64,000 bases of DNA. It comes from Candidatus Methanomethylicia archaeon (GTDB lineage: Archaea > Thermoproteota > Methanomethylicia > CALHIW01). The translations under genes were made by a program, and so were the position numbers. The notes beneath the pieces were generated by a model, which was given only the letters and a program-made list of their open reading frames with translations, did no database searches and was not told where the DNA came from. Below, one piece after another: positions 5,586 to 57,075 of this stretch. The stretch's first letter is position 1, and the number at the start of each line of letters is the position of its first letter. The stretch covers positions 1 through 64,000 of the forward strand of contig JAWBQF010000012.1 of the NCBI GenBank assembly GCA_038845975.1. The letters run 5' to 3'.

Positions 5586-5600
5586 CCTTAAATCTTTTTA

Positions 5601-7073: not shown

Positions 7074-7630
7074 TAACCATAAAGCAAATAAGCTCATAAA
7101 GCATTCTTGAAACTTCAAAATTATCCTCTACTATTCATACTGATGTAGCGGTCTTTCATATTATGGATTCATTTCATTCAGCATAGCGATTAAGCATTAC
7201 TACTAAACCATCATTACTCCTACCCTAAACCTACAAATAGAATTCTACTAAGCTTGCAAGCGAACCCAGCAACTTAGCATATGTAGCTTCCAACTTAAGT
7301 TGCTGAATCCCATAAAGATACAACAAGCTTAAATAGAAGATATTACAATCTCGTTTAGCTATTCATCTCCATAAACAACAGAAAATTAATCACTAACACT
7401 TAATAATCTAGTAGATTCTAATGTATGTTTAATCTTTACGATGTTGATTGTATGGAGATGTTGGCTTAATATCTTAAGGTAATGTTAAGAGTTTCAGCAA
7501 CATAGCTAAAAATCTTTTAAGACTTGGTAGGGGGTAGGGGAATATTTATTATGGTTTTAAAGCTATGGTAAGTTAAGTAGTAGGAATAAATGAATTGATA
7601 GTAAACCTTATTACTAACAGGGTGGTAGTT

Positions 7631-23373: not shown

Positions 23374-23483
23374 AACCAATACAGATATCCCTAATCATTT
23401 AAAATAAAACCTATCTTGCTTGAACAGTATCCTTAATTTTTAAAACAAACATTTATATATATGTATATATTCAGAGGAGTTGG

Positions 23484-30995: not shown

Positions 30996-31037
30996 TAATC
31001 CACCCTTCAAACTAGGATCCTGCTTAAAATTAAACTA

Positions 31038-36720: not shown

Positions 36721-36762
36721 TAATAACAGGGGGTGTAAGCTAATAACAGGGGGTGTAAGCTA
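36721..36762 (+). repeat. Perfect 20-bp tandem duplication spanning the SD of the ATPase gene
   Basis: TAATAACAGGGGGTGTAAGC x2, followed by TA. Confidence 0.9.
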
Positions 36763-39621: not shown

Positions 39622-41004
39622 CTATATTACAACTATTATTGCTATATCGTTTACATTTGTACCTGTTGGTCCGGTAAAGATAAGGTCACCTATTCTTGAA
39701 AAAAATGTGTAGGAGTCATTATTTATTAAGTAATCCATCATGTTTAAACCTAGATTCTCCGCTCGAATTCCTGTTTCTCCATCGATTATAGCTCCAGCAG
39801 CATCAGTCGGTCCATCAATACCATCAGTACTTATAGCTGCTATAGCTACACCGTTTACTCCTCTTATTCTTGTAGATGCGCTTAAAGCAATCTCCTGGTT
39901 TCGACCACCTATACCACTACCAGTAACAGTTACTGTTGTTTCTCCACCTAGTACTATTGCAGCAGGTTTAGGAATAGGGTTTCCTGAAGTTAATACTTCA
40001 AATGCTATAGAGGAAAGTATTAAACCCATATTTCTCGCCTCCCCTTCCATGAATGATGTTAGAAATAAAGTATTTAATCCTTGATGTTGAAGCTTCTTAA
40101 TAGCTGCTAGACATGCAAGTCTATTATTACCTATAATGATGTTATGTACCTTCTCGAAAACCTTATCTCCAGGTTTAGGTGTTTCAGGAATTAATCCCTT
40201 AACCCCATTAGTTAAAACATCTCTAATTGAAGCTGGAGCTTTATCCCATAGATTATATCTCTTTAAAATGTTAATAGCCTCTATAAATGTAGTTGGGTCT
40301 GGAACTGTTGGGCCTGAAGCTATAACGTCAAGACGATCACCTACAACATCAGAAAGAATTAGACTAACTAGAGTTGCAGGGTAAGCTTCCTTAGCAAGCA
40401 TTCCACCCTTAAAATTGGATAAGTGTTTACGAATAGTATTAATTTCATTAATATTAGCTCCTGATCTAAGTAGCATTTCAGTTATTCTTCTCTTATCATC
40501 TAGGGAAACCCCCTGACAAGGTATAGTCATTAAGCTTGATCCTCCTCCTGAAATTAGACAAATTACTAAATCATCACTTCCAGCTTTACCAGCTAACTCC
40601 ATAATTTCTAATGCTCCCCTAACACTATTTTCATCCGGTACTGGATGGGAAGCTTCATAAAGTCTTATTCTCCTAGTTCTATACTGACTGGATGTTCCTC
40701 TAGGAATAACTACTACTCCATCCTCTATTCGATTCTTTAAAACCTCCTCTAATGCTTCAGCCATAGAGCCGCTTGCCTTTCCACCACCAATAACAAATAT
40801 CCTTCTAAACCCGGATAGCTTAAATCTTAAACCATTAACTTCCAGTAAATCATCAGATAGAGTGATCTTCGACTTTATAAGACCTCTTGGATCTACAGAT
40901 TTCAAAGCCTCTTCAATAGCACTTAAAGCTATTTCTCTTGCTCTTCGAGTTAGAGGTGATGAAGCATTATTTAATAAATTCATCCAATTCCTAATTCTAA
41001 ACAT
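39622..41004 (-). CDS. gck: Glycerate 2-kinase (MOFRL), canonical
   Basis: GGGKA, HPVPD, ISGGGS, SDVVGD.LDVIASGPT, GGETTV, GGRNQE, TDGIDG, GPTGTNVND. Confidence 0.9.
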   Translation of the reverse strand: MFRIRNWMNLLNNASSPLTRRAREIALSAIEEALKSVDPRGLIKSKITLSDDLLEVNGLRFKLSGFRRIFVIGGGKASGSMAEALEEVLKNRIEDGVVVIPRGTSSQYRTRRIRLYEASHPVPDENSVRGALEIMELAGKAGSDDLVICLISGGGSSLMTIPCQGVSLDDKRRITEMLLRSGANINEINTIRKHLSNFKGGMLAKEAYPATLVSLILSDVVGDRLDVIASGPTVPDPTTFIEAINILKRYNLWDKAPASIRDVLTNGVKGLIPETPKPGDKVFEKVHNIIIGNNRLACLAAIKKLQHQGLNTLFLTSFMEGEARNMGLILSSIAFEVLTSGNPIPKPAAIVLGGETTVTVTGSGIGGRNQEIALSASTRIRGVNGVAIAAISTDGIDGPTDAAGAIIDGETGIRAENLGLNMMDYLINNDSYTFFSRIGDLIFTGPTGTNVNDIAIIVVI

Positions 41005-43410: not shown

Positions 43411-44361
43411 GTGTTAGTATTGATTGAGATTATTATTAAGGCATTGGCTTACTCAAGCTGTATAGCATTAGGTGCTTCAAGCATAACTATAATTTACATG
43501 GCTACTAGAACGTTTAACTTTACTCATGCATCTCTTATTGCTTGGGGTTTTTACATAGTGTTTGCATTATCATCAATATTTGGTGGAAGCCCATACTTAT
43601 ATCTTGTTTTTGCAGCCTTATTTTCAGGAATGTTAGGTATACTTGTTTATTTAACTGTTAATAGAAGGCTTTTAAAAGCAAGATCTAGTGAAGTTGTTTT
43701 AATGATGTCCACATTGGGTCTTGATCTAATTTTCTTCGCATTCATAAACATATTTGCTGATTTCTTAACTACTAATTATAGGATTCATGCAAGATATTTT
43801 GCATTAGAGCTTAAGGATTTAATTATTGATTTTGGTATTTTCTCTATTAGAGCTATTGGAGTTATAGCTCCAATAGCTATGATATTGATAGTTTTAGCTT
43901 TAAATCTCTTCCTAATGAAGACTAAGTTCGGTATTGCTATGAGGGCTTCTATTGAGAATCCAGGTCTTGCGGGAATGATAGGAATAAATCCTGAACTAAT
44001 ATATATGTCTTCATGGTTTATCGGAGGAGTTCTTGCAGGGCTTTCAGGAGGATTACTATCAATGGTTATAACTGGATATCCTGCTGTGGGAATGACAACA
44101 ATAGTAACGTTTTTCGCTGGATCTATAGTTGGAGGGTTATATAGTATATTTGGGAGCCTTCTCGGAGGACTACTTATAGGTTTAAGTGAATTTCTTGGAA
44201 TATACTTCTTATCAATGGTTCTCGGTGGGGAGATTACAGCATATAGACCAATAATACCACTACTAATAATGGCTGTAACCCTACTTATATATCCAAGAGG
44301 ACTAGCTGGAATTAGCTTAGGTAGACTGAAAACAATTATTTGGAGGGGTGGTAGTAAATGA
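43411..44361 (+). CDS. livH: Branched-chain amino acid ABC permease
   Basis: FNFTHA, TKFGIAMRASIEN; paralogue of 1486. Confidence 0.9.
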   Translation: MLVLIEIIIKALAYSSCIALGASSITIIYMATRTFNFTHASLIAWGFYIVFALSSIFGGSPYLYLVFAALFSGMLGILVYLTVNRRLLKARSSEVVLMMSTLGLDLIFFAFINIFADFLTTNYRIHARYFALELKDLIIDFGIFSIRAIGVIAPIAMILIVLALNLFLMKTKFGIAMRASIENPGLAGMIGINPELIYMSSWFIGGVLAGLSGGLLSMVITGYPAVGMTTIVTFFAGSIVGGLYSIFGSLLGGLLIGLSEFLGIYFLSMVLGGEITAYRPIIPLLIMAVTLLIYPRGLAGISLGRLKTIIWRGGSK

Positions 44362-45425
44362 TTGAAGTACCTCCAATCATACTTAACATACTTATAAACT
44401 TCGCTATTGGATTAATAATAACCATAAGCTTAAACCTAGAGGTGGGATATGCAGGTATTCCACAGTTCGGTAGAGTTTTAGCTGTACTTACAGGGGCTAT
44501 AGTGGCTGGAGCTATACCCGGTAGGATCCTAGCTTTAATGATGAATCAGCCAAGTGGAGCTGACTATGCATATCACTTAATAAACTATAGGCTTGTTGAA
44601 GATATAAATAGGGTATTAGCCTTAAACCCAATACTTTCAGCAGGAATATTCATAGTTACGCTAGTATTTGCTGCATGTTTAGGAGGGATTATAGGATATA
44701 TAACAGCTTATCCAGCAATAAGGCTTAAGGAAGCATATCTTGGAATTACCCTACTAGCCTTCGGTGATGCCCTTCAAATAATTGCTTGGAATTATCAGCC
44801 AATAGTTGGAGCAACACAGGGGGTACTAGTACCGGATCCGTTTAGATTTATAGGTGTTGGAGAGTTAAGATTCCTATTTGCTACAATAGTAATGCTTGGA
44901 ATAGCAGTACTAATATTTTTATACGCTGAAAGAATCTCCAGATCACCTTTCGGTAGAGTTCTTAAAGCTATGAGGGATTCTGAGGTAGCTGCTAAAGTTT
45001 ACGGTAAGGATATTCCTAAAGTAAGAGCACAAGCATTAATTATAGGATCCTCACTAGCAGCTATAGGGGGAGCATTATGGGCATTTTATAGCGGAAGCAT
45101 GAAGGCAGTAGCTTACAGTAGATTGGTATGGACGTTTTGGCCATGGGCATACATGATGCTTGGAGGAACAGGAAACAATCTAGGTGTACTTATAGGTGTA
45201 CTTATATTCTCAATAGTTAGAACCTTAATATATTCATATAAGGGAGTTTTAACATCAATCATACCGATAGATCCTAACTGGCTTGAGTACATACTTGTAG
45301 GATTAACAATAGTTGTAATAGTAATGTTTAGACCACAAGGAATAATACCTGAAAAACCAGCCTTAACATTATCTATAGAAAAAATAGAGAAGATAAGAAA
45401 ATTGAAAACTAACATAAAGAAGTAG
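44358..45425 (+). CDS. livM: Branched-chain amino acid ABC permease
   Basis: SLNLEVGYAG, RLKEAYL, SPFGRVLKAMRD. Confidence 0.9.
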   Translation: MIEVPPIILNILINFAIGLIITISLNLEVGYAGIPQFGRVLAVLTGAIVAGAIPGRILALMMNQPSGADYAYHLINYRLVEDINRVLALNPILSAGIFIVTLVFAACLGGIIGYITAYPAIRLKEAYLGITLLAFGDALQIIAWNYQPIVGATQGVLVPDPFRFIGVGELRFLFATIVMLGIAVLIFLYAERISRSPFGRVLKAMRDSEVAAKVYGKDIPKVRAQALIIGSSLAAIGGALWAFYSGSMKAVAYSRLVWTFWPWAYMMLGGTGNNLGVLIGVLIFSIVRTLIYSYKGVLTSIIPIDPNWLEYILVGLTIVVIVMFRPQGIIPEKPALTLSIEKIEKIRKLKTNIKK

Positions 45426-45541
45426 TAATTCAAACTTTAAGCATGTGGAAACCTATATAGCAAAATATAGAATCAATTTCTAAACATACTTATTTAATGG
45501 AAAAATTTAAATGTTTATAGTTTCTAATTATAGGGGATTGT

Positions 45542-46912
45542 ATGGCTATAAGTACTAAGCTAGCATCCATATTAATAGTAGTGTTTCTACTAATAGGTAT
45601 TGTAGCAGGCTACTTCACTGGAAGCGCAGCAGTCCCAGTTAAAACAGTAACTGTCCCTGCTGCAGCTACAACAGTAACAGTACCTACAACAATAACGGCA
45701 GCTACAACAGTAACTAGAACAGCGACTGTTACAGCTCCTGCTGTTCCCGGTCTTCAGGGTGATGTATTTATAGGTGTTTTACTTCCATTAACTGGAGTTC
45801 TATCATCTTACGGTGAAAATGATAGGGTAGCTATTGAACTTGCTGCAAGCGAAGTTAATGAATGGCTTTCATCTCTTGGTAAGCCTTGGAGAATTAAGCT
45901 ATTTGTTGAGGATACGGCTACTGATCCTAAGACAGCATTAGATAAGATACAGGCTCTTCATGGACGTGGAGTTAAAATATTCATTGGACCAATGTCCAGT
46001 GCTGAAGTTAGCGAGGTGAAGAGCTATGCTGATGCAAACGGTTTACTAGTTGTATCACAATCATCAACCTCCCCTGCACTTTCAATACCTAATGATTCAA
46101 TACTTAGATTCTGTCCTATGGATGTCGCTCAGGGAGCAGCTATAGCTAGGATTATGTGGGATAGAGGAATAAGATATCTAGTACCAATATGGAGAGGGGA
46201 TACTTGGGGTGATGGGCTTAAGGAGTTTTCAGTTAAGGCCTTCGATAAGATTTTGAAGGCTTCAGGTGAAATGGGAGGTATTGATTCCGGGATAAGATAC
46301 GATCCTGCTGCTAAGGAGTTTTCTGTTGAGGCCGCTAAGCTAGCAAGCATTATTGATGGTGCAGTTAAAAAGTATGGTAAGGAGAAAGTTGGCGTTTTAG
46401 CTATAAGTTTCGAGGAGATAGCTGCTATATTTGCTGCTGTAAAGGCACATCCAATACTTTCAGAGGTTAAATGGCAGGGGTCAGATGGAACAGCTGGAAC
46501 AGCAGTATTGATTGAGGATAAATCATTAGCTGAATATTCAATAAAGATAGGCTTCTATAATACTATAGGTTCACCAGGTGCTTCACCATATACTGATAAA
46601 GTTAAGAAGCATATTCTTGAAAGGCTTGGAAGAGAACCTGAAGCTTACGCTTACTTCTCCTATGATGCATTATGGGTTATATCTCTAGCTCTAGATACTG
46701 TAGGGAAATATGATGGTGTAGCTGTTAGAAATGCAATACCACAAATACTTAAACACTATATGGGTGCATCAGGATTCTTCAGTCTAGATGAAAATGGAGA
46801 TAGAGCTACAGGAGACTACGATATACTTGCAATTAAGCTAGTAGCTGGAGAATATAAATGGGAAACTATAGGAGCATATAGATACGCTACAGATTCCGTT
46901 GAATGGAAATAA
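45542..46912 (+). CDS. livK: Branched-chain amino acid ABC substrate-binding protein
   Basis: TM anchor, Thr/Val-rich linker, LLPLTG, EDT, STSP, GDR. Confidence 0.9.
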   Translation: MAISTKLASILIVVFLLIGIVAGYFTGSAAVPVKTVTVPAAATTVTVPTTITAATTVTRTATVTAPAVPGLQGDVFIGVLLPLTGVLSSYGENDRVAIELAASEVNEWLSSLGKPWRIKLFVEDTATDPKTALDKIQALHGRGVKIFIGPMSSAEVSEVKSYADANGLLVVSQSSTSPALSIPNDSILRFCPMDVAQGAAIARIMWDRGIRYLVPIWRGDTWGDGLKEFSVKAFDKILKASGEMGGIDSGIRYDPAAKEFSVEAAKLASIIDGAVKKYGKEKVGVLAISFEEIAAIFAAVKAHPILSEVKWQGSDGTAGTAVLIEDKSLAEYSIKIGFYNTIGSPGASPYTDKVKKHILERLGREPEAYAYFSYDALWVISLALDTVGKYDGVAVRNAIPQILKHYMGASGFFSLDENGDRATGDYDILAIKLVAGEYKWETIGAYRYATDSVEWK

Positions 46913-46939
46913 AATATAAAATATTTTTTTGGTGGCTAT

Positions 46940-47704
46940 ATGAGTCAAGATATTAACATATTAGAAACACATAACCTAGTTAAGAGATTTGGAGGACTTA
47001 TTGCTGTAGACGAAGTAAATATTAAGATTAAGAAGAATAGCTTAACAATGCTTATAGGACCTAACGGTGCAGGTAAAACAACTCTTGTTAATCTATGTAC
47101 TGGTGTTTTAAAACCAGATAATGGTAAAGTATTATTTGAGGGAAGGGATATTACTAATTGGCCTCCCCATAGAGTTTATAAAGCAGGACTTGTAAGAACA
47201 TTCCAAGTTCCTGAACCCTTCCTCTCACTTACAGTATTAGAGAATGTACTTGTAGCTTTAGGTAATAGTGGGGAAAACCCTATTAAAGCATCGTTTAAAA
47301 AGCTATGGATTAAGGAGGAGGAGGAAAAGATAAGAAGAGCCTTTGAGATTTTAGGGAAAGTTGGTCTTGACGAATTCTGGAATATGGAGGCTTATAGGCT
47401 TGGTGCAGGTCAGTTAAAAATGCTTGAGATAAGTAGAGCTTTAGCTACTGGAGCTAAACTAATAGCTTTAGATGAACCTATAGGAGGAACTGATCCAGCA
47501 TACGCAAATGAAATATTTAAATATGTTAGAAACATTAAGGATACATGGAACATTACCTTTCTAGTTATTGAGCATAGAATCGATATTGCTCTCCCATTTG
47601 CTGACTATGTTTACGTAATGGATAGGGGGAAAGTTATATTTGAAGGTCCTCCACAACTTGTTGAGAATGAGCCTAAGGTTATAGAGGTTTATATAGGTAG
47701 ATAA
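46940..47704 (+). CDS. livG: Branched-chain amino acid ABC ATPase
   Basis: FGGLIAV, GPNGAGKT, RTFQ, DEP, IEH. Confidence 0.92.
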   Translation: MSQDINILETHNLVKRFGGLIAVDEVNIKIKKNSLTMLIGPNGAGKTTLVNLCTGVLKPDNGKVLFEGRDITNWPPHRVYKAGLVRTFQVPEPFLSLTVLENVLVALGNSGENPIKASFKKLWIKEEEEKIRRAFEILGKVGLDEFWNMEAYRLGAGQLKMLEISRALATGAKLIALDEPIGGTDPAYANEIFKYVRNIKDTWNITFLVIEHRIDIALPFADYVYVMDRGKVIFEGPPQLVENEPKVIEVYIGR

Positions 47705-47705
47705 T

Positions 47706-48422
47706 ATGGGTATTCTTCAAATAGAAAAACTGAATTCAGGGTATGGTAAGCTTAAAGTATTATTTAATGTAAACTTTGAAGCTATGAAGAAGGAAATAAC
47801 AGTAATTGTAGGACCTAACGGTGCAGGTAAAACAACTCTTCTCAACAGTATATGTAGCATGGCAACAATCTATGATGGAAAAGTGTTTTTCGATGGGAAA
47901 GACATTACTGGATTACCAATACATAAGATAGCTAGACTAGGTATATCTTACCTACCGCAAATGGGTAATATATTCACCAATCTAACAGTAGATGAAAATC
48001 TAAGAATAGCTGGCTATATACTACCTAAAGAGGAGGTTAAAGGTAGAATAGGTGAGGTACTTGAAATATTCCCAAGACTTAAACCATTCCTAAACAGGAA
48101 GGCTGGAACACTAAGTGGAGGGGAGAGGAGAATGCTTGCAATAAGCGTAGCCCTCATGAGGAAACCTAAAATACTTCTGCTGGATGAAATGACTACTGAT
48201 CTAGCTCCAATACTTGTTAAAAAAGTACTGGAGAAAGTAGTTGAGTTAAGAGATAGTTTAGGATTAACAATAGTACTTGTTGAACAACATGCTAAAAGAG
48301 CATTAGAAATAGGTGATAGAGCATATTTACTGGTAAGTGGAACAATAAGGTTTGAAGGAGAGCCTAAAAACCTATTAGAACACCCGGAATTTTCAAAGCT
48401 ATATTTAGGAATAATAAAGTAA
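47706..48422 (+). CDS. livF: Branched-chain amino acid ABC ATPase
   Basis: GPNGAGKT, LSGGERRMLA, LLDE, VEQ. Confidence 0.92.
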   Translation: MGILQIEKLNSGYGKLKVLFNVNFEAMKKEITVIVGPNGAGKTTLLNSICSMATIYDGKVFFDGKDITGLPIHKIARLGISYLPQMGNIFTNLTVDENLRIAGYILPKEEVKGRIGEVLEIFPRLKPFLNRKAGTLSGGERRMLAISVALMRKPKILLLDEMTTDLAPILVKKVLEKVVELRDSLGLTIVLVEQHAKRALEIGDRAYLLVSGTIRFEGEPKNLLEHPEFSKLYLGIIK

Positions 48423-48725
48423 TTCGCTAATTTTAAGCTCCACCATTAAGCTTATGGAAACATGATTCCCAACGTATATTTACAAGTTAATTCTTAAATA
48501 GAAGTGAAGATTAACTAGATTAAAATGTAAGTAGGTTTTATATTAAACGAAATTAAAGCTTCTCCTATATTTCAAGATAGTGAAAGTATATTAGTGTTTC
48601 CATTAGAATGAAACTTGAATTACGTATAACCTAACATACTATATCTTCTAAACAGCATTCTGAAATAGATATTGGGCTACTTGGAAACGATAGCTTGTAG
48701 CTACAAGCTAGCTGAGATGTTATGG

Positions 48726-49970
48726 TTAAGTATAGCTACTTAAATCCTCTAGTAGAATCTTATTAATAGTTAGCATTACTTTTCTTAAAGGTATATTTAG
48801 TTCTTCAGCTATAGCTTTTAAGTCGTTATAGTCTGGTTTAATATTTAGAAGTTTACCTTCAGGTGTTCTAGAAATCTTAACTTTAACACTATATCTCTTA
48901 CCATTAATATTTATAGTTCTTGTTTCCTCACTTCTTAAAGCTAGAACTCTACATGTTTCATAAATTCTTACACCTAAAGTTCCCGTTTCATTCATTAATG
49001 CTTTAAGTACTTCATCATACTTACTATGCTCTACAAGAACCTTAACTATATGTGAGGGCCTATTCTTCTTACCTACAGCTGGAATTATTGAAATATCTAA
49101 TGCTCCTAAATCCATAATTCTCCCAGCTAAATATCCTAAAATCTCACCTTGTACATCATCAATATTTGTTTCAAGAACCATAATCTTATCACTAATAGCT
49201 TTAAAATCATATCCTTCAACTATTCTTAGAACATTCGGAATGTTTTCAAAGTCTTTAACACCTGCTCCATAACCTATCCTCTCTATTCTTAACGGCGGAT
49301 AGTAATCTACAATTCTCCCTGTAAGATTTACTAGGAGCGCAGCACCTGTTGGTGTTGTAAGTTCTGAATCGACTGGTGTAGATGTGAATCTATAGCTATG
49401 TCTACGAAGTATTTCAAGCGTTGCTGGAGCTGGAGCATTAATAACTCCATGCTCCATCTTAACGTAACCCCCACCCAAAGCAGGAGGCGTAGTATATACT
49501 TTAACCTCTCCTCTAAAATAGTTTAAAGCATCCAGCATTAGTGATACTCCAACTATATCAAACACAGTATCTGATGATGCTAACTCATGAAATACTACCT
49601 CCCCCCTACTTACTCCATGAATCCTCGCTTCAGCCTCTATAAGTTCATCTATAACATTTAAAGCATAGCTAATCCCCCCACTCGATAATCCCATTTTAAC
49701 TCCTACCTCCTCAACATATTTCCTTAAATCAATAGCTCTTACATTACATGCATCCTCCTCAATACTCATCCTCAATATCTTCGCCCTAATCCCCTTCTTA
49801 ACCGTATCGACTACCTCAACCTTAAATGAGCTACAATAGCTTAATGTATTCTCTATGGTATCTGCAAGCTGATATAACTGTTCCCCAACCCCAACCATAT
49901 CAACTAAAGCTGAAAGCATCATATCCCCTGAAATCCCAGCTATTCTCGGATCAACTACCAAAACCCTCAT
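48726..49970 (-). CDS. larC: Nickel pincer cofactor nickel insertase LarC
   Basis: GISGDM, FHE, PAPAT, TPTGAA, GYGAG, PNVLR, ETNIDD, KKNRP, ETGTLGVR. Confidence 0.92.
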   Translation of the reverse strand: MRVLVVDPRIAGISGDMMLSALVDMVGVGEQLYQLADTIENTLSYCSSFKVEVVDTVKKGIRAKILRMSIEEDACNVRAIDLRKYVEEVGVKMGLSSGGISYALNVIDELIEAEARIHGVSRGEVVFHELASSDTVFDIVGVSLMLDALNYFRGEVKVYTTPPALGGGYVKMEHGVINAPAPATLEILRRHSYRFTSTPVDSELTTPTGAALLVNLTGRIVDYYPPLRIERIGYGAGVKDFENIPNVLRIVEGYDFKAISDKIMVLETNIDDVQGEILGYLAGRIMDLGALDISIIPAVGKKNRPSHIVKVLVEHSKYDEVLKALMNETGTLGVRIYETCRVLALRSEETRTININGKRYSVKVKISRTPEGKLLNIKPDYNDLKAIAEELNIPLRKVMLTINKILLEDLSSYT

Positions 49971-50106
49971 TTACAATTCCCTACTAGGAAATAGACAATA
50001 TATACTCTACAGGCTTAGCTATATATAGATTCTGTCCTGTTAACTTCAGAATTAATTAATAGTAATTTACTAAATGTTTTATACGAAGCTTTAAGCAATG
50101 AGTAAG

Positions 50107-50217
50107 AATTATAAATTCTCAGTTTTAAGAGATGTGAAATATGTTGTTTCTATAGCTAAAAATTTATAAATTTCTCAGCTTTAAATAGGAATGTGAGATA
50201 TGTTGTTTCTATAGCTA
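50107..50217 (+). repeat. Imperfect tandem duplication of promoter plus first codons
   Basis: AATT(T)ATAAATT(T)CTCAG.TTTAA...ATGTGA.ATATGTTGTTTCTATAGCTA at 50107-50158 and 50161-50217. Confidence 0.85.
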
Positions 50218-50801
50218 GGGTAGATGAATCTAAATGTAATGGTTGTGGAATATGTGAGAGGGTTTGCCCAACTCTTTCAATTAGAGTTGGTGAGGATTTT
50301 CTTGCTCATGTTGATGAGTCTTCATGTACTGGATGTACTGCATGTATGGATAGATGTCCTCAATATGCTGTTTCCATAATTTCCTTGGAAAAGCCAAGGG
50401 TTTTACAGGTTGATTGGAGGAAAGCGCCGTATGAGAAAATGCTTGAAATCTGTAGGAAAGCTCATCACCATCCAGAGGAGGTTATCTGTTTCTGTACTGG
50501 TACGAGGGCGAGGGAAGTTGCTGCAGCTATATTGATGGGGGCAGATTCTCCGGAGAAACTATCGAGAATGACTGGTATACGTACTGGCTGTAAGGTTGAA
50601 TGTATTCAACCAGTATTAAGGCTTTTAAATGCTGCTGGAGTAAAACTTCAAAAACCTCCTGGATACCAGTGGTATGGCTTAACATCAACTCTCTGGGATT
50701 TACCTGAAGCTATACTAGGTAAAGAGGAGTATGGGAAGTTCTACTTTTTAAAGGATAAGGAGGTTATGGAGAAGATTGTTAGAGGTGGAGGGAATGAGTA
50801 A
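50193..50801 (+). CDS. 2x[4Fe-4S] ferredoxin fused to a BFD-like [2Fe-2S] domain
   Basis: CNGCGICERVCP, CTGCTACMDRCP, then ICFC...TGCKVEC. Confidence 0.88.
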   Translation: MRYVVSIARVDESKCNGCGICERVCPTLSIRVGEDFLAHVDESSCTGCTACMDRCPQYAVSIISLEKPRVLQVDWRKAPYEKMLEICRKAHHHPEEVICFCTGTRAREVAAAILMGADSPEKLSRMTGIRTGCKVECIQPVLRLLNAAGVKLQKPPGYQWYGLTSTLWDLPEAILGKEEYGKFYFLKDKEVMEKIVRGGGNE

Positions 50802-52227
50802 GATTTATCCTCCACAGCCTCCTCTTCCACCCCGTGAGTCGATTTATGGTGTTAAGCCAGAGTATATTGGGAAGAGAGCCTACCAATTACCGGGTATGGT
50901 GTTCGTAAAGATTAAGGACTTGTTTCCTGATATGCCGGAGGTTATATGGCCTCCACCAAATACTAAAGCTATAAGAGAGGCTACAGTTAAAGCTCTTGAA
51001 AGTATTGATATGAGCTATATAAAGCCTGAACATTCAGTAAATATTTTAGCTTCACATCATGGATTTACACTTCTCGGTGGGGAGCCTTACGCTGAAATGC
51101 TGAAGACAATTAGGGATGTAGTTGAGGAAAGGACAAAATGTAGAGATATAAGGTTGAGAGCAGGTGTTGGCCTGAGATTTAGGGAAACTGAGGAATATAT
51201 TAGGAAGTTTAAGCTTGACGAGTATTTCGGTTCCGGGAAAGCTATTGGTATTACACCAATAGATCCAGGAATACCTATTGAGACGGAGATAGGTACGCTT
51301 TACGGTATTAGAGCTGCTTATGATGCTGATTGGATTATACATGCACATAATAGCGATGTTAGGGAAGTACATTTCCATAGACATGTTGATAGAGCTGTAA
51401 AACCATTCGGAATGTCTTATGCGAGAATAGAGACAAGATCAGCCTATCATCATAACCTGGGACCTAGAGGAGCTAACTTTATTGCTAGAGCTATATTTGA
51501 ATCCCCACTTGTCAAGAGGAAGTGGGCTTTTGCATGCTTCCTACTACCTACACCTGTTGGAATTGTAGGAGTGGATGCAGATAGAGATCTATACAGGCTA
51601 GATGAAAGAATAACAAGGCTAAACTTAAAGACATACGGTAAGGTAATGCATTTACTTGGAAAAATAGATGAAGCAATAGCAATACTTGACTTTATGTGTC
51701 CAGTACCATACGTATTTGCAGGTGGAGTAATATTTGCTAACTTCTGCTGTGCAAATATAGATTTATTTGATCTTGATAAACCATTTCCACCATATACATG
51801 GTATACTGAAGCATACTACGATGAAAATGAGAAACCACTATCACCTGAAATACCACCACCAAACCCTGCAATTAAAGCAATAGTTATAAACTATGTATGG
51901 AAAGGATATCCATCAGTTTTCTGGTCTAAACACTTCCCAACAATAATTGTAGGAGAACATCATAAGGAACTGTTTGATAATGATCCTCAAAATATAGAAT
52001 TTACAAAGTACATTAAAGCAGTAACTCCAGATCTAGATTCTGCAATTAAATTAGCTTATGAAATAGCTAAAACAGATAAAATCATAGTTTTCGATGGAGC
52101 TGCAGGAGGATTTAATGTAAGCAAATCCCTTGCTGAACTACTCATAAAGGAGGCGACTAAAGCAAGTAAAGAAGTGGATGAGGAGCTAATACATAAATGG
52201 CTTAGGCAAAGAGGTATAAAACCATAA
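50794..52227 (+). CDS. Uncharacterised protein, possibly distant LarA-like fold
   Basis: Long intact ORF, ATG 50794 after GGAGG. The N-terminal layout (IKP..SVNILAS..; RAGVG.RFRETEE) resembles the LarA N-domain. His-rich motifs ASHHG, HAHNSD, HFHRH. Confidence 0.6.
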   Translation: MSKIYPPQPPLPPRESIYGVKPEYIGKRAYQLPGMVFVKIKDLFPDMPEVIWPPPNTKAIREATVKALESIDMSYIKPEHSVNILASHHGFTLLGGEPYAEMLKTIRDVVEERTKCRDIRLRAGVGLRFRETEEYIRKFKLDEYFGSGKAIGITPIDPGIPIETEIGTLYGIRAAYDADWIIHAHNSDVREVHFHRHVDRAVKPFGMSYARIETRSAYHHNLGPRGANFIARAIFESPLVKRKWAFACFLLPTPVGIVGVDADRDLYRLDERITRLNLKTYGKVMHLLGKIDEAIAILDFMCPVPYVFAGGVIFANFCCANIDLFDLDKPFPPYTWYTEAYYDENEKPLSPEIPPPNPAIKAIVINYVWKGYPSVFWSKHFPTIIVGEHHKELFDNDPQNIEFTKYIKAVTPDLDSAIKLAYEIAKTDKIIVFDGAAGGFNVSKSLAELLIKEATKASKEVDEELIHKWLRQRGIKP

Positions 52228-52240
52228 CATCATACTTAAA

Positions 52241-53146
52241 ATGAATGAGTTAAACCTACTTGGGAAAACAGAACTTTGGATAACAAACATTAAACTTAAC
52301 CATGTAAATCTAAATTCTATTTCAGAAACAGTAGCTAGAGTTTTAAAGCTAAGTAGAAATGAGGTCTTTGTAACAGATGTTAGAGAGGACTATATAGTTC
52401 TTGACATCCTAAGAGAAACAATAGATCCTAAACAGATATTTGGCAAGAAAGATGAGCTTTTAATGGAGTTAGCTAAGATACCAGGATTCATAATCACTCC
52501 AGAAACCGATATACATTCAGAAGGAGTTTTATCATTTATCTCCCTTAATAAAGAGATGGTGGAAACTATAGTAGAGGAGAGTCAGAGAATTATTGATGAG
52601 GTTAAAAAGAAGATGAAGATGAGAGCAATAGTTTTTCCAACTGGTTTTGAAGTTAAGAGGGGAATAATTAAGGATACGAATACTCCATTAATAATTGATA
52701 AGCTTGAAAAAGAAGGATTTAAGGCAGTTCATGGCCCAGTACTTGATGATGATGAATACATGATTGCAGCTAAAATAAGAGAAGCAGTAGATAGCGGTTT
52801 TGGACTAATAATATTAACAGGTGGAGTAGGTGCTGAGGACAAGGATAAAACAATAGAAGGAATAGAGAAGGCAACAAAGAATATAAGAACTGAATACGTA
52901 GTTAAATATCATCAAGGTAAGGGAAGACATGCTAAAAGCGGAGTAAGGATAGCTGTTGGAAGATATGGTGAAAGCATAATAATAGCTTTACCTGGACCAA
53001 CTGATGAAGTAAAGGAATGTATAGATATAGTTATAGAGGGAGTGAAAAATAACTTAAAGGAGGAGGAGCTAGCTGAAAAAATAGCAAACAAACTAAAACT
53101 TCTATACTTATCTAGATATAATAAGTATTTACATACTCACCATTGA
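52241..53146 (+). CDS. Molybdopterin-binding (MoaB/MogA/CinA-type) domain protein
   Basis: TG.EV..G.I.DTN, DD, LTGGVG...D.T, ALPGP; extra N-terminal domain; C-terminal HTHH. Confidence 0.82.
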   Translation: MNELNLLGKTELWITNIKLNHVNLNSISETVARVLKLSRNEVFVTDVREDYIVLDILRETIDPKQIFGKKDELLMELAKIPGFIITPETDIHSEGVLSFISLNKEMVETIVEESQRIIDEVKKKMKMRAIVFPTGFEVKRGIIKDTNTPLIIDKLEKEGFKAVHGPVLDDDEYMIAAKIREAVDSGFGLIILTGGVGAEDKDKTIEGIEKATKNIRTEYVVKYHQGKGRHAKSGVRIAVGRYGESIIIALPGPTDEVKECIDIVIEGVKNNLKEEELAEKIANKLKLLYLSRYNKYLHTHH

Positions 53147-53238
53147 CAGTATGGTGAAAATAATCATAAAAGATGTTACTTCCAATTAAGATGTTAATAA
53201 GAAGCTAGTTTACCATTATTACGTTGATGGGGTAAAAT

Positions 53239-54048
53239 ATGAATGGAGTAGATCTACGTGATATAATATTTAAAGATATACTATCTAAGAGGATTATAGC
53301 AGTTATAGTTTCAGATGATGAAGGTATGATTGTCTTAACTGAAAAGTTAAGAAGTAAGGCTAATGAAATAGGTATTGAAGTGCTTGAATGCTTACCTTCA
53401 GGAGCTTACGTAAGGAGGGGGACACCTATAGCTAAGTTAAGAGGTAATCCTAAGCAGATAGCTTTAGCTGAAGACCTTCTTATAGGAATTATAGCTAAGG
53501 CTTCAGGTATAGCTACAGCAGCCTACAGAGCAAATAAGCTAGCTAATAATAAATTAAGAGTTGTTTGCGGTGCATGGAAGAAAATGCCTATTGAAGTAAA
53601 AGATACTTTTAGGGAAGCTATAAAAATTGGTGGTGTAAACATTAGAATACTTGATGAATCCTTCATATATCTAGATAAAAACTACGTTAAGATTCTTGGT
53701 GGTATTAGGGAAGCATTAAAGGCTGTGGAGGAATTTAAAATGGTTAAAGTGATTCAAATAAAGGGTAGAGTAAAGGCTATTGAGGATGAAGCGGTGGAAG
53801 CTGTAATTAATGGAGCTAAAGTCATAATGATTGATACAGGCAATTTAGATGATGTACGTAGAGTAAATAGAGTATTAAAAGAGAAAGGATTAAGAAATAA
53901 GGTAATGATAGCATTTGCTGGAAACATAAAATTAAACGACATACCTAAACTAATCAATGAAAACATAGATATAGTTGATATTGGTAAAGAAATAATAGAT
54001 GCACCACTACTAGATATGAGGCTAGAAGTGATTTCAGTAGAGAACTAA
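53239..54048 (+). CDS. Quinolinate phosphoribosyltransferase (NadC/ModD) fold protein, atypical
   Basis: G.....AE..IG..SGIAT, E..EA...GA..IMID, AG.I, D.VDIG; GAWKK in place of TRKT. Confidence 0.8.
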   Translation: MNGVDLRDIIFKDILSKRIIAVIVSDDEGMIVLTEKLRSKANEIGIEVLECLPSGAYVRRGTPIAKLRGNPKQIALAEDLLIGIIAKASGIATAAYRANKLANNKLRVVCGAWKKMPIEVKDTFREAIKIGGVNIRILDESFIYLDKNYVKILGGIREALKAVEEFKMVKVIQIKGRVKAIEDEAVEAVINGAKVIMIDTGNLDDVRRVNRVLKEKGLRNKVMIAFAGNIKLNDIPKLINENIDIVDIGKEIIDAPLLDMRLEVISVEN

Positions 54049-54061
54049 TATAATTTACAAC

Positions 54062-54103
54062 ATGGTAACTTAGCATACTGTAGCTTCCTCCCTAAGTTAC
54101 CAT
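54062..54103. repeat. 12-bp perfect inverted repeat with 18-nt spacer upstream of larA
   Basis: ATGGTAACTTAG (54062-54073) ... CTAAGTTACCAT (54092-54103). Confidence 0.75.
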
Positions 54104-54161
54104 ACCTTACTTTCAATAGTAACATATATATGTTCTTATTAATTATTAAATCGGTGGTTTT

Positions 54162-55529
54162 TTGGTTAAAGTATATATTCCCTATGAAAGTATTGAAAAA
54201 ACAATAATAAGTTCTGCTGCTAGTGAGAAAGAAATTTTCCGTGGAAAACTAGAGTTAGAAATTCCTGATGAAAACTTTGTTGCTAACATACTTCCAAAGG
54301 AGCCTGCCCCTATAATTAACCTAGAAGAGGAAGTTAGAAAGACACTAGAAAACCCGGTTTCCGGCCCAAAATTTTCTGAATTGATTGGGCCTGATGTAAG
54401 TATTGCTATAATTACAGATAATCAATTTAGACCTACACCTACGTCTAGATACTTAACTGTAATACTTAACATACTTGAGGAAGCTGGAGTGAGAAGAGTA
54501 GGTGTAGCTATTGGCGGCATGTTTGTATCTTATGCAGTACCTATGAGCGATGATGATATTAAAGCTAAGCTAGGTGTTGAAAATGTTAAAAGATTAAAGG
54601 AGAAGGGATGGGAAATATGGCAGAATCAGCCTAAAGATCCAGCTGCAAATAGATTTATCGGGTTCACGAAAGCAGGTACTCCAGTATGGGTTAATAAAAA
54701 GCTTATGACCTTTGATGTAAAATTTGGCTTACCATTAACTCAAGCTACTCAATGGGGTTATAGTGGTGGGGGAAAGCTTGCTTTAGCTATGTGTAGTGAA
54801 GAAACAATTGAAATTAACCATTTAAAATGCTTAAGCCCTGAAACACGTTATGGCTCACTTAAGGGACCTATGAGGTTAGATATTGATGAAATTGCTGAAC
54901 TTACAGATTACAGATATGCTCTTAATACAATCATGGACTCAAAGGGAAATGTAATAGACTTAACCTACGGTGAACTCCCAGAATCCTTTAAAGTATCAGT
55001 TCAAAAATATAATAGGATATATACGTATGATATACCTCAACTTAGACAGAGAAAAGCTGACATAGTTATCTGTGGAACCTTTGCGAAAAGTGATCATATA
55101 TTCTTCCATACTGGCTGGGGTGTAATGAGTGCAGATCTAATATGTAAGGATGGGGGAACAATAATATATTGTAGTCCATGTCCAGGTTTCCGTGAATTCC
55201 CTGGTTTCGCCTTAATGGATTTAATGAAGCCATACATGCCGCCTACAACTGAAAACTATGAGAAGCTAATTAGAGACATATATTTAAGAAAGGTATCTAT
55301 GTGGAGTGGCTGTATATGGGTTCCAATATATGAAGTTATGTTAAGGAAAAATGTAACCATAGTTACAATGAAGGAAAATCTTACATTAGGAAGAGAAATA
55401 GGTTTAGATGTTACAGATTCTCTTCAGGAAGCCTTTGAAAAAGCATTAAAAAGACATGGAACTGGAGCTAAAGTTATAGTTCTCCCCTATGCGAGAATGC
55501 AGCTTCCAACATGGGCGGTAGAAATCTAG
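54162..55529 (+). CDS. larA: LarA-family nickel-pincer-dependent enzyme, divergent
   Basis: L.NP, ITD...RPTP, G.T..GTPVW.N, GYSGGGK, NH, P.R.DIDE, DGG.II..SPC. Confidence 0.82.
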   Translation: MVKVYIPYESIEKTIISSAASEKEIFRGKLELEIPDENFVANILPKEPAPIINLEEEVRKTLENPVSGPKFSELIGPDVSIAIITDNQFRPTPTSRYLTVILNILEEAGVRRVGVAIGGMFVSYAVPMSDDDIKAKLGVENVKRLKEKGWEIWQNQPKDPAANRFIGFTKAGTPVWVNKKLMTFDVKFGLPLTQATQWGYSGGGKLALAMCSEETIEINHLKCLSPETRYGSLKGPMRLDIDEIAELTDYRYALNTIMDSKGNVIDLTYGELPESFKVSVQKYNRIYTYDIPQLRQRKADIVICGTFAKSDHIFFHTGWGVMSADLICKDGGTIIYCSPCPGFREFPGFALMDLMKPYMPPTTENYEKLIRDIYLRKVSMWSGCIWVPIYEVMLRKNVTIVTMKENLTLGREIGLDVTDSLQEAFEKALKRHGTGAKVIVLPYARMQLPTWAVEI

Positions 55530-55960
55530 CTAAATCAGCTAACTTAAAAACTCTTTAATATTTACTACTTTAAACAACTTACCATCAATATTAGTTGTGA
55601 AATTTAATATTTTATATAAGTTTGTTTGAAAGCTCTATTGTTTAGAGTTTCAGGAAGATTGTAGAAGCCCTCTAAAGCTATAAATTCACATAACATAGAA
55701 AACATTTAAACTATGGAATATAATGTATAAAATTCATGAATTACTTCATAGTTTATCTTTACTTAGAGAGAAGTATTGATGGGTTTCCTCTTTAAGACTT
55801 CTTGATTAATAGATAATGTAAAGATAGCTAAAGTAAGTGGAGTACTATGATGGATACGATTATAACTTTAAGATATTTAACAAGTCTTGATGAGTAGCTA
55901 TTAGGTATTTTAATTAGACACCTTAACTTACCAAAATTCTTAAATAATCTCAAATATCTA

Positions 55961-56176
55961 TTGTATATTAAAGTGGTAATTATTAGGAGGGAGTTAAAGT
56001 TCTGTCCTGAATGCGGTTCTACAAATATATATTGGGCATCTGGCTTACCGCAGCTATGGTCTATATGGGAATGTAGAGATTGTGGGTATCGTGGAACGCT
56101 TATTATTGAGGATAGCGGATTAGCTATGAAGATTAGAGAGAAATATCTTAAGGAAAGACATAGTAAGTATGGTTGA
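55961..56176 (+). CDS. Small zinc-ribbon protein
   Basis: FCPECGS...WECRDCGYRG. Confidence 0.75.
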   Translation: MYIKVVIIRRELKFCPECGSTNIYWASGLPQLWSIWECRDCGYRGTLIIEDSGLAMKIREKYLKERHSKYG

Positions 56177-56700
56177 GGGTTAATAGTATGGTTATTAAGG
56201 CTATTTTCTTTGATTTAGGTGATACAATTATTATTGAGGAGGATCAGGATAAACGTCTATGGGAAGCTGATTTAAGGAAGCTACCTTATGTTGATGATGT
56301 TTTAGCAGAGTTGAAAAGAAGAAATTATATGATTGGGTTGATAACGAACACTACAACGTCAAAGGAAATTCATGTTAGAGCTGCTTTAAGAAAGCTAAAT
56401 ATTGAGCATTACTTTGATGTTGTTATTACATCTGTTGATGTTGGTGTTGAAAAGCCTAATGAGGAAATATTTATTAATGCATTAAGTAGAATTAATGTAA
56501 AGCCTTGGGAAGCAGTAATGGTTGGTAATAGAATATCTAAAGATATAGTTGGTGCAAACAAAGTTGGAATGATTTCAGTTTTAATTAAATGGAGGAACAA
56601 ATACCGTGAGGAAGCCTTAACAGACTTAGAAAAACCTAAACACGAAATATCATCATTAATAGAGCTTATCGAAATTCTAAATAAGCTAGAGAAAACCTAA
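56173..56700 (+). CDS. HAD-superfamily hydrolase
   Basis: FFDLGDT, ITN, EKP, MVGN...DI.GA; start may be ATG 56188. Confidence 0.88.
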   Translation: MRVNSMVIKAIFFDLGDTIIIEEDQDKRLWEADLRKLPYVDDVLAELKRRNYMIGLITNTTTSKEIHVRAALRKLNIEHYFDVVITSVDVGVEKPNEEIFINALSRINVKPWEAVMVGNRISKDIVGANKVGMISVLIKWRNKYREEALTDLEKPKHEISSLIELIEILNKLEKT

Positions 56701-57075
56701 GCTACTGTAATCACCTCTACTTAACAAAACGAATTTAACAATAGGAAAATTCAAAACATATAAGCTTACTAATATTTCTATACTTTTCCTTCAAAATCTT
56801 GAATATCTAATATTGTTTAAAAGTGATAGCTTTTCTATTTCTCTTTAGGAGAACTATGTAAGTTTTATAACCTCATTGCTTCCATTATCAACATAAAAAC
56901 GATGGAAAACTAGAATTTAATAGTAACTTGATACTTCTCCAGAGCTTTACTAGATTTATAATAGTCCCATATATTTTCCAATTCAAGAATCTTGAGAACA
57001 TAGTCAAAGTAATCGGAATAATTTTAGCTTGATCTTCACATATTATGTTTTATATAGCTGGGAATCTTGGAAAAT

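Follow-up and report, generated by a model that had tools for sequence, protein, structure and literature searches.

LarC is the CTP-dependent, nickel-inserting cyclometallase of the pathway that makes the nickel-pincer nucleotide (NPN), the cofactor of the LarA superfamily of 2-hydroxyacid racemases and epimerases. In LarA itself, catalysis depends on His108 and His174, while NPN is bound by Arg75, Lys184 and His200, according to the available portion of PMC11770544. Covalent attachment of NPN adds about 450 Da to LarA, as reported in PMC13524815. Here, we describe a six-gene locus found in a 64-kb stretch of DNA (hereafter the window; contig JAWBQF010000012.1, positions 1 to 64,000) from the genome of a Candidatus Methanomethylicia archaeon. 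In this locus, larC is divergent from an operon of four genes encoding a ferredoxin, a protein that we call P3, a protein with a MogA/MoaB fold (MoaB-like) and a paralogue of quinolinate phosphoribosyltransferase (NadC; QPRT-like), and the operon is followed by an atypical larA homologue. Our analyses indicate that P3 is a LarA-fold enzyme, probably dependent on NPN, that has a new set of partners and probably a new chemistry. With modest confidence, we lean towards a two-subunit enzyme in which P3 and the ferredoxin would use NPN to perform a net hydride step on an organic acid brought in by an importer, with the QPRT-like and MoaB-like proteins as obligate helpers. The literature that we covered, which did not extend to the supplementary context tables of LarA-superfamily papers, describes neither the P3 family nor a LarA-like protein linked to a ferredoxin, and the gene set is likewise absent from it.

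LarA-like fold and predicted ferredoxin partner of P3

P3 matched no Pfam or NCBIfam family at E-values up to 0.01, the reporting threshold for both libraries, and a PDB sequence search using a profile of 12 members of the P3 family returned no match at E up to 10. In contrast to this silence, the initial annotation had called P3 LarA-like, and the predicted structure bears it out, as the model matches LarA structures only. Using the AlphaFold2 model of P3 (predicted local distance difference test, pLDDT, 77.4; predicted template modelling score 0.84), the first 13 ranks listed by Foldseek were all LarA-family chains (E 7.6e-8 to 1.4e-5, probability 1.00). VIA-align retrieved 11 LarA-family entries at Z 13.8–16.1, the next entry reaching only Z 5.8, with 309–350 aligned residues and root-mean-square deviations of 4.1–6.4 Å. 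Furthermore, the ESM Atlas clusters nearest to P3 bear the automatic name 'LarA-like N-terminal domain-containing protein', hence databases hint at the fold of P3 and give no function. Judged by its model, P3 is therefore a LarA-fold protein. No fused or longer form of P3 was found at 836–2385 aa, which is weak evidence. About 15% of the genomes analysed in PMC11796402 are reported, in the part of that paper available, to make NPN without a recognisable LarA. Since the P3 family is invisible to the LarA models of such surveys, it could explain some of these genomes.

Only 18 residues are invariant over 24 members of the P3 family (31–100% identity). K203 and H219 are among them, 16 positions from each other, as are Lys184 and His200 in LarA. 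An hhalign comparison of P3 with 30 diverse LarA homologues taken from genomes gave E 0.0043 at a probability of 8%, colinear over 196 columns. This weak register places P3 H193, K203 and H219 on the LarA motif H-x9-K-x15-H, which corresponds to His174, Lys184 and His200, and puts R128 at the position of His108. H193 is itself replaced by Y or D in some divergent family members. P3 would thus retain at most one of the two catalytic histidines of LarA. Profile comparisons between P3 and the LarA homologue of the window yielded probabilities of 0.4% and 1.2%, and nothing usable. Taking the predicted fold together with these residues, we infer that P3 probably binds NPN, with the cofactor anchored at Lys203 and the nickel bound by His219.

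We then compared the locus with those of other species. In a collection holding one genome per species, 226 of 240 pattern-matching stretches encode a P3 relative; counts given below out of 80 refer to the best 80 of these 226, all from other species. The four core genes occur together in 64 of the 80 loci, a recurrence far beyond chance, and larB, larC or larE lies within approximately 8 kb of the module in 25 of them. The earlier proposal is supported in that the four operon genes form a real, conserved unit linked to NPN genes.

The ferredoxin of the module has two [4Fe-4S] motifs followed by a BFD-like [2Fe-2S] domain, and its C-terminal tail is conserved. Cysteines 15/18/21/25, 45/48/51/55 and 99/101/133/137 are invariant in 18 sequences, as is the C-terminal tail. 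Its gene lies directly upstream of P3 (no more than 200 nt away) in all 77 loci with room for it. Moreover, the predicted P3–ferredoxin complex scored 0.95, against 0.00 for the best of three controls; of the solved complexes, 58 of 80 reach the mark used, as do 2 of 110 mismatched pairs, a calibration that is approximate here because custom alignments were used. The runs agreed in at least 93% of contacts, and the pLDDT of the partner was at least 91. It is unlikely that this score reflects recall of a solved complex, given that no PDB sequence is related to P3. The predicted interface sets P3 residues 211–229 (including E213, R215 and H219) against the ferredoxin loop 131–140, which carries the [2Fe-2S] ligands C133 and C137, and the P3 helix involved bears the putative nickel-binding His219. 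The modelling supports direct binding of P3 to the ferredoxin, and the modelled interface is laid out as one would expect for electron transfer between the cluster chain and the active site of P3. The initial annotation had offered, as one of two options, a redox NPN enzyme coupled to ferredoxin; the constant adjacency of the ferredoxin gene and the predicted complex make this option the best fit.

Link to NPN synthesis and possible roles of the companion proteins

Absence of larB and larE was a premise of the initial annotation. This is correct for the window, but it fails at the genome level, since both genes are present on other contigs of the genome (2.77 Mb, 76 contigs, 93% complete). larB (contig C7, 24887-25528) scored 254.9 bits for a cut-off of 175 and larE (contig C2, 99001-99771) scored 305.4 bits for a cut-off of 150, each standing alone among unrelated genes. 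Together with the larC gene adjacent to the module, the genome thus holds the full canonical set of LarB, LarE and LarC above curated cut-offs, as well as two further Lar_N proteins.

In other species, LarC is encoded near the module in 22 of the 80 loci, LarB in 17 and LarE in 6. In a Desulfurococcales locus (L010), larB, larC and larE are all interleaved with the module and no LarA paralogue is found nearby. At the genome level, which we assessed for 50 of the 80 loci with preference for longer contigs, LarB exceeded its cut-off in 46 genomes and LarC was present in 47. Furthermore, among 151 genomes sampled from the phylum of Neomoorella, LarC was found in 13 of 13 P3-positive genomes versus 82 of 138 P3-negative genomes (one-sided Fisher p = 0.0017, which overstates the case since the genomes are related and hence not independent of one another).

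Two of the 50 P3-bearing genomes (G005, locus L013, and G034, locus L053) have no detectable LarB, LarC or LarE. Both carry the full module, along with two and five classical Lar_N proteins, respectively. Such a gap is not specific to P3, since 7 of the 28 LarA-bearing genomes of the phylum sample also lack LarC. LarA homologues without detectable LarC were observed in G051, G063, G065, G074, G085, G091 and G098; G065 encodes seven LarA homologues, and G074 encodes a canonical LarA of 668 bits. The missing LarC may reflect incomplete assemblies, scavenging of the cofactor or another route of nickel insertion.

These data bear on whether P3 uses NPN at all. P3 could instead bind another metal or cofactor, or none, and its linkage to lar genes could be due to neighbouring LarA paralogues. 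The conserved residues of P3 include many His, Glu and Arg, which might serve as ligands of another metal, P3 shares no significant sequence similarity with LarA, and two P3-bearing genomes lack LarB, LarC and LarE. DUF362 proteins often carry iron-sulfur domains. DUF362 belongs to the same Pfam clan as the N-terminal domain of LarA, as stated in the accessible part of PMC11770544. On the other hand, K203 and H219 are two of only 18 invariant residues and keep the spacing found in LarA, lar genes are interspersed among those of the module in loci such as L010 that have no LarA paralogue nearby, and LarC accompanies P3 in 13 of 13 and 47 of 50 genomes, more tightly than it accompanies the classical LarA homologues (21 of 28). 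We consider a LarA fold devoid of NPN to be unlikely.

The QPRT-like and MoaB-like genes track P3 closely. They are adjacent, in this order, in 60 of the 80 loci, and they are fused into a single open reading frame (ORF) of 594–598 aa in three bacterial loci. Among the 151 genomes of the phylum sample, P3 was found in 13 and the QPRT-like gene in 13, with 12 common to both; in the two genomes that do not match, the genes lie on short contigs of 5.6 kb and 4.3 kb. The 4.3-kb contig (L126, contig C33 of genome G098) carries the MoaB-like gene beside the QPRT-like gene, the MoaB-like gene being split into two overlapping pieces in different frames, which points to a frameshift or to faulty assembly. 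Genome G098 yielded no P3. With a QPRT-like gene in 13 of 151 genomes and LarC in 95 of 151, the QPRT-like protein is tied to P3 and not to NPN synthesis in general.

The QPRT-like protein aligns with positions 26–268 of the 269 positions of TIGR00078 and matches QPRT entries of the PDB at E 1e-14 to 5e-5. Comparison of 55 QPRT-like sequences with two canonical NadC proteins revealed replacements where each group is internally conserved (TRKT to AWKK, ER to ED or EE, H to I, LKDNH to LDKNY, E to Q173 and E to A225). The NadC residues replaced presumably take part in the binding of quinolinate and phosphoribosyl pyrophosphate (PRPP). As far as sequence comparison can tell, the QPRT-like protein is a NadC-fold paralogue with a remodelled active site. 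A housekeeping NadC role was rejected, since two carriers (G049 and G037) also have a true nadC (292–293 bits). NadA was not found in four carriers that lack a true nadC (the genome of the window, G000, and G027, G002 and G010), using a search that detected it in 12 of 14 control genomes.

The MoaB-like protein scored 74.1 bits with TIGR00177, below the cut-off of 85.35, and fell far below the cut-offs of the MoaB and Mog equivalogs. Its PDB matches are Mog/MoaB adenylyltransferases (E 1e-7 to 1e-5), and the family retains the GG-x-G...D stretch (TGGVGAEDKD). The N-terminal part of about 125 aa forms a strongly conserved domain for which we found no credible relative in the ESM Atlas, in Pfam (E up to 10) or among PDB sequences. 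The AlphaFold2 model of the protein has a pLDDT of 86.8.

Such folds had led the initial annotation to suggest that the operon makes a variant cofactor by another route. In this scenario, the two proteins would make or modify a pyridinium nucleotide specific to P3, which would use a non-standard pincer cofactor; this could be an adenylylated pincer mononucleotide, i.e. a dinucleotide, or the pair could provide a dedicated supply of nicotinate nucleotide precursor. The scenario fits the confinement of the QPRT-like protein to P3-bearing genomes of the sample, in contrast to the general spread of LarC (13 versus 95 of 151 genomes), the adjacency and fusion of the pair, the conserved TGGVGAEDKD stretch in a protein whose closest solved relatives are molybdopterin adenylyltransferases, and the two genomes (G005 and G034) in which P3 and the pair occur alongside classical LarA homologues without any LarB, LarC or LarE. 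Furthermore, an adenine-dinucleotide pincer cofactor, NPAD, is reported for ornithine cyclodeaminases, as cited in the available text of PMC13524815. However, canonical larB, larE and larC are present in the genome of the window, LarB and LarC occur in 46 and 47 of 50 P3-bearing genomes, and the QPRT-like protein departs from both canonical NadC proteins at positions invariant within the family. In bacteria, the pair lies between the IclR gene and catabolic genes, inside a catabolic operon whose lar genes, where present, are at the other end. A cofactor specific to P3 is therefore rather improbable, and an alternative pathway for making the cofactor is unlikely. We regard the QPRT-like and MoaB-like proteins as obligate companions of P3 and not as a replacement of LarB and LarE.

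Alternatively, the pair could serve molybdenum or tungsten pterin enzymes such as aldehyde:ferredoxin oxidoreductase, with a ModD-like QPRT-fold protein and a MoaB-like partner, P3 and its ferredoxin being unrelated neighbours. ModD is a QPRT-fold protein, Mog and MoaB are the closest solved relatives of the MoaB-like domain, and aldehyde:ferredoxin oxidoreductase genes occur in 11 of the 80 loci. Yet the pair tracks P3, with 12 of 13 carriers in common, and not aldehyde:ferredoxin oxidoreductase, which is confined to those 11 loci; no ModD model was among the NCBIfam matches at E up to 0.01, and the MoaB equivalogs fell far below their cut-offs. This explanation is very unlikely.

Catabolic context, distribution and proposed reaction

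The bacterial loci share a typical gene order: IclR, QPRT-like, MoaB-like, an FAH-family protein, DmpF, DmpG, ferredoxin, P3, BenE and an M24 hydrolase. LarE, LarB and LarC sometimes follow the M24 hydrolase, that is, at the end opposite to the QPRT-like/MoaB-like pair, which lies between the IclR gene and the catabolic genes. Among the 80 loci, FAH was found in 59, DmpF in 51, DmpG in 53 and all three in 49, while IclR was found in 52, BenE in 33 and M24 in 27. DmpF and DmpG are well above their cut-offs (464 bits for 282 and 543.6 bits for 286, respectively), and BenE also passes its cut-off (223 bits for 203). The FAH protein is closest to 2-oxopent-4-enoate hydratase, at 321–336 bits, which is below the cut-off of 408.8. 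In some loci, BenE is swapped for a tripartite ATP-independent periplasmic (TRAP) or an ATP-binding cassette (ABC) importer. Others add UbiD/UbiX, aldehyde:ferredoxin oxidoreductase with a small ferredoxin, or an iron alcohol dehydrogenase; the UbiD proteins match the general family model only, hence they give no clue to the substrate. This operon content places the module upstream of the branch that turns 2-oxopent-4-enoate into pyruvate and acetyl-CoA. The Asgard and Methanomassiliicoccales loci contain the four-gene core alone, without this lower pathway.

We propose that NPN would be made by LarB and LarE, encoded elsewhere in the genome, and by the adjacent LarC, and carried by P3. Through the chain of clusters in the ferredoxin, two [4Fe-4S] followed by one [2Fe-2S], electrons would reach or leave the active site of P3, which would perform a net two-electron (hydride) step. 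The companions of QPRT fold and MoaB fold could be subunits, enzymes acting in the preceding or following step, or maturation factors specific to P3. In bacteria, the P3 system would constitute the upper step of an IclR-controlled pathway in which an organic acid enters through BenE, TRAP or ABC importers. This step would feed 2-oxopent-4-enoate, or 2-hydroxypenta-2,4-dienoate, to the hydratase, 4-hydroxy-2-oxovalerate aldolase and acetylating acetaldehyde dehydrogenase. In the archaeon of the window, the system consists of the core, larC and a histidine-less LarA paralogue, without the lower branch. The analysis shows the gene content, the fold, the conservation, the linkage and the predicted interface; NPN binding, the direction of electron flow and the nature of the substrate are what we infer.

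Several observations weigh against this two-subunit NPN enzyme. The P3 model has a pLDDT below 50 exactly over residues 188–225. No significant match between P3 and LarA was obtained by sequence, either with Pfam, NCBIfam and the PDB profile search or with hhalign (1.2% and 8%), so that the Lys/His equivalence rests on a low-confidence alignment combined with spacing and invariance. The base rate of LarC in the phylum sample is high (95 of 151), which makes the co-occurrence of LarC and P3 weak when taken alone, and G005 and G034 carry P3 with no detectable LarB, LarC or LarE. Homologues of DmpG (DmpG_comm) and of the FAH protein were not found in the genome of the window, 93% complete, hence the logic of the bacterial pathway may not hold for the window. 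The two-subunit enzyme does not account for the QPRT-like and MoaB-like proteins. Finally, the literature on NPN enzymes that we covered offers no precedent for a hydride cofactor coupled to one-electron iron-sulfur clusters.

A more specific version of the two-subunit enzyme can be drawn from the lower pathway, although we regard it as speculative and rather unlikely. P3 and its ferredoxin would form the first ferredoxin-dependent nickel-pincer oxidoreductase, reductively opening 2-furoate, or pyrrole- or thiophene-2-carboxylate, to 2-hydroxypenta-2,4-dienoate. Electrons from the iron-sulfur clusters would load a hydride on the pincer cofactor for delivery to the five-membered heteroaromatic 2-carboxylate. 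The atoms balance for 2-furoate (C5H4O3 + 2[H] = C5H6O3, by arithmetic only), and the pyrrole analogue fits with loss of NH3. Because 2-hydroxypenta-2,4-dienoate is the substrate of the hydratase branch, the opening of 2-furoate gives the neatest fit to the operon, as exactly one reductase would be required before the hydratase. UbiD/UbiX, aldehyde:ferredoxin oxidoreductase and alcohol dehydrogenase could funnel furandicarboxylate, furfural and furfuryl alcohol into this route, which would explain why these genes are present in some loci, and the QPRT-fold/MoaB-fold pair would be accessory proteins of a new type that bind the substrate or tailor the cofactor. If this is true, such a ring opening would provide an oxygen-free route for furan and pyrrole acids.

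The nucleotide could also be the substrate of P3 instead of its cofactor. The QPRT-like protein would ribosylate an imported N-heteroaromatic carboxylate, for instance a pyridine or pyrrole carboxylate, using PRPP, the MoaB-like protein would handle the resulting nucleotide, and P3 would reduce or oxidise it through the ferredoxin after binding it where LarA-type proteins accommodate a pyridinium mononucleotide. Heteroaromatic 2-carboxylates are ligands of the QPRT fold, and the operon contains the aromatic-acid importer BenE together with an M24 hydrolase in 27 loci. By arithmetic, a pyridine monocarboxylate and four H2O yield pyruvate, acetaldehyde, formate and NH3 with zero net redox. In the available portion of PMC11770544, the LarA fold is described as binding a nicotinate-derived mononucleotide. 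Conversely, the QPRT-like protein has other residues at its putative catalytic positions, no enzyme conserved in the operon would release the extra one-carbon unit or the ribosylamine, and the core exists in Methanomassiliicoccales and Asgard archaea without the lower pathway. The invariance of K203 and H219 and the linkage to lar genes favour NPN as a cofactor. Such an activation of the substrate is quite unlikely in our opinion.

Returning to the ferredoxin-coupled NPN enzyme, known nickel-pincer enzymes move hydride only within or between substrates; if our proposal is true, the coupling of such an enzyme to iron-sulfur clusters would extend the chemistry of this cofactor to net redox reactions. 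The bacterial operons point to an anaerobic entry into the 2-oxopent-4-enoate branch, which classically belongs to oxygen-dependent ring-cleavage pathways. The proteins are soluble and thermophilic versions exist, which makes the hypothesis directly testable with existing systems for coexpression of LarB, LarE and LarC.

Among 7999 candidates scored, 1557 proteins belong to the P3 family at E of at most 0.001, and 184 representatives (50% clustering) reach E 0.001, many of them fragmentary. The matches listed are 62–90% identical to the protein of the window and come from both archaea and bacteria. From these comparisons, the family is large but tight. The four-gene set occurs in more than 200 anaerobic bacterial and archaeal species, and Neomoorella carbonis, Desulforamulus putei, Sporomusa aerivorans and Fonticella tunisiensis are carriers available in culture. 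P3 was found in none of 40 relatives of the window's archaeon, one of the same genus (62% complete) and 39 of the same class. At 2.77 Mb, the genome of the window is larger than these 40 sampled relatives (0.5–2.2 Mb), and it is the sole carrier of P3 among them.

We built a quick maximum-likelihood tree of 69 rows, the P3 of the window and 68 of 72 clustered P3 ORFs, lengths outside 440–520 aa being dropped. The tree separates 54 bacterial sequences from a supported clade (100) that unites 12 archaeal and three Chloroflexota sequences. The P3 of the window sits on a long branch (0.55) beside Dehalococcoidia sequences, with a support of 94 (not starred). The patchy distribution of P3 suggests transfer. 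The stretch occurs in hot-spring metagenome runs, and the closest named relatives of its P3 are from Desulfurococcales/Thermoproteota, while the tree places it among archaea and Chloroflexota; the source is probably a hot-spring archaeon.

Gene content of the window and comparison with known systems

The content and coordinates of the six genes, with larC divergent from the operon at 50193-54048, were confirmed by gene calls and family scores (Table 1). The larC product joins LarC1 and LarC2 parts in a single protein. The best start of P3 is the ATG that overlaps the ferredoxin stop codon, in agreement with a 477-aa database entry; beyond this overlap, the genes from P3 to the LarA homologue are separated by 13, 92 and 113 nt. 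An intergenic region of 222 nt separates the divergent larC and ferredoxin genes and contains most of a tandem duplication whose 27-nt core (50132-50158 and 50191-50217) is 96% identical between copies 59 nt apart. The duplication, of approximately 55 nt, spans an A+T-rich, TATA-like stretch and the initial ferredoxin codons; from its sequence, it could yield two promoters or be a replication slip. An Rfam scan of positions 48000-57000 revealed no credible RNA element, its two matches (E 0.36 and 0.54) being far under their gathering scores, and no tRNA gene was found in the window.

Table 1. Features of the locus in the window and fused companion genes in three bacterial loci.
Feature	Location	Strand	Supporting matches and remarks
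larC	48726..49970	-	Pfam Ni_insertion 348.9 bits; NCBIfam LarC1 154.8 (cut-off 90), LarC2 111.7 (cut-off 50)
Tandem duplication, ~55 nt	50109..50217	+	Between divergent larC and ferredoxin genes
Ferredoxin, 202 aa	50193..50801	+	Pfam Fer4 53.5 bits, Fer2_BFD 33.2 bits
P3, 477 aa, LarA-fold by model	50797..52227	+	Structure matches; no Pfam or NCBIfam match
MogA/MoaB-fold protein, 301 aa	52241..53146	+	MoCF_biosynth 76.3 bits (cut-off 26.6), residues 131-265
QPRT (NadC)-fold paralogue, 269 aa	53239..54048	+	nadC TIGR00078 94.1 bits, below cut-off 198.4
LarA homologue, 455 aa	54162..55529	+	Lar_N 89.5 bits (cut-off 23.3), LarA_C 25.4 (cut-off 25)
Fused QPRT-like/MoaB-like ORF	L045, 10899-12686		Bacterial locus
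Fused QPRT-like/MoaB-like ORF	L062, 9476-11260		Bacterial locus
Fused QPRT-like/MoaB-like ORF	L072, 3363-5159		Bacterial locus

Alignment of the LarA homologue with 5huq_A using HMMER showed that Lys184 (K205) and His200 (H220) are kept, while the catalytic His108 and His174 are replaced by Ala and Thr, respectively. The protein falls below the cut-offs of the NCBIfam equivalogs compared, which comprise lactate racemase, the malate racemases LarAH5/6, LarAH10 and LarAH14-16 (168.5 bits for 500, 146.7 for 462, 135 for 540, 109 for 460 and 26.5 for 740). In nine relatives from P3 loci, ENQFR replaces SDHTR, both histidines are absent and the lysine is mostly absent. This atypical subfamily occurs in 10 of the 80 loci. 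The phylum sample contains one full-strength match (G090, E 6e-222), which has LarC and a fragment of P3 on the same contig; in one other genome the match lay within the threshold (E of at most 1e-60) at 3.8e-63, and we read it as a different LarA homologue. The atypical LarA is thus an optional accessory of the P3 module. Just downstream of this gene, a 71-aa ORF (55961-56176) with two CxxC pairs resembles a zinc ribbon and overlaps by 4 nt the start of a short gene for a HAD-IIIA-type phosphatase (56173-56700).

Elsewhere in the window, a link of the module with the genes at 58.6-62.2 kb, encoding a 3-hydroxyacyl-CoA dehydrogenase and an HpaB-family protein, had been envisaged; it is rejected, as none of the 80 loci contains them. 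Likewise, none of the 80 loci has a match to the ABC-transporter binding protein of the window. Two Liv-type ABC importers (4266-7073 and 43411-48422) form a paralogous pair. The window also contains paralogous DUF4147+MOFRL (glycerate-kinase-like) genes on the minus strand (29637-31010 and 39622-41004) and paralogous archaeal ATPase_2 proteins with an MCM_C winged helix (7595-8728 and 36762-37844). Finally, positions 21493-25673 encode a CcmF-like cytochrome c assembly protein of 626 aa followed by a 729-aa surface-type protein with CARDB/DUF11 domains.

Compared with known systems, the companions of P3 depart from their relatives in several respects. The QPRT-like protein aligns over its whole length with NadC (PDB 3C2E, 1X1O and 1QPR). 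Unlike NadC, it scores below the equivalog cut-off, has conserved positions replaced, coexists with a true nadC and occurs in genomes without NadA. The C-terminal 170 aa of the MoaB-like protein share the MoCF_biosynth domain and the GG-x-G...D stretch with the MogA/MoaB adenylyltransferases and the N-terminal domain of CinA; unlike MogA and MoaB, the MoaB-like protein has an extra N-terminal domain of about 125 aa and comes in every case with the QPRT-like protein, as a pair or as a fusion. As for the pathway, bacterial P3 operons encode bona fide DmpG and DmpF and a DmpE-like hydratase, as in the lower branch of meta-cleavage pathways, but in contrast to classical meta-cleavage they are found in strict anaerobes with no ring-cleaving dioxygenases nearby.

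P3 itself shares with the LarA superfamily (5HUQ, 6C1W, 2YJG, 7S91 and 9EIA) the two-domain fold of its predicted model, a Lys and a His spaced like Lys184 and His200, and the linkage to lar genes. Unlike members of this superfamily, P3 is unseen by the Lar_N and LarA_C models, has an Arg at the position aligned with His108, is accompanied by an obligate three-cluster ferredoxin and two further obligate companions, and is found in a catabolic, redox context. Its top structural matches (Z 16.1 and 15.9) are LarA homologues that miss one catalytic histidine, as P3 apparently does. Those proteins (9q3j_A is named 'DUF2088 domain-containing protein' in the PDB) are recognisable by sequence, unlike P3, and the available description of them reports a His to Asn replacement, octamers and a link to carbohydrate metabolism, without a ferredoxin. 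LarA racemases give the borrowed hydride back to the same substrate, which the proposed P3 enzyme would not do. Pincer-cofactor enzymes of other folds, which were also found through lar linkage and a His/Lys pair, have already extended this chemistry beyond racemisation. They pass the hydride between substrates, whereas P3 would exchange it with iron-sulfur clusters.

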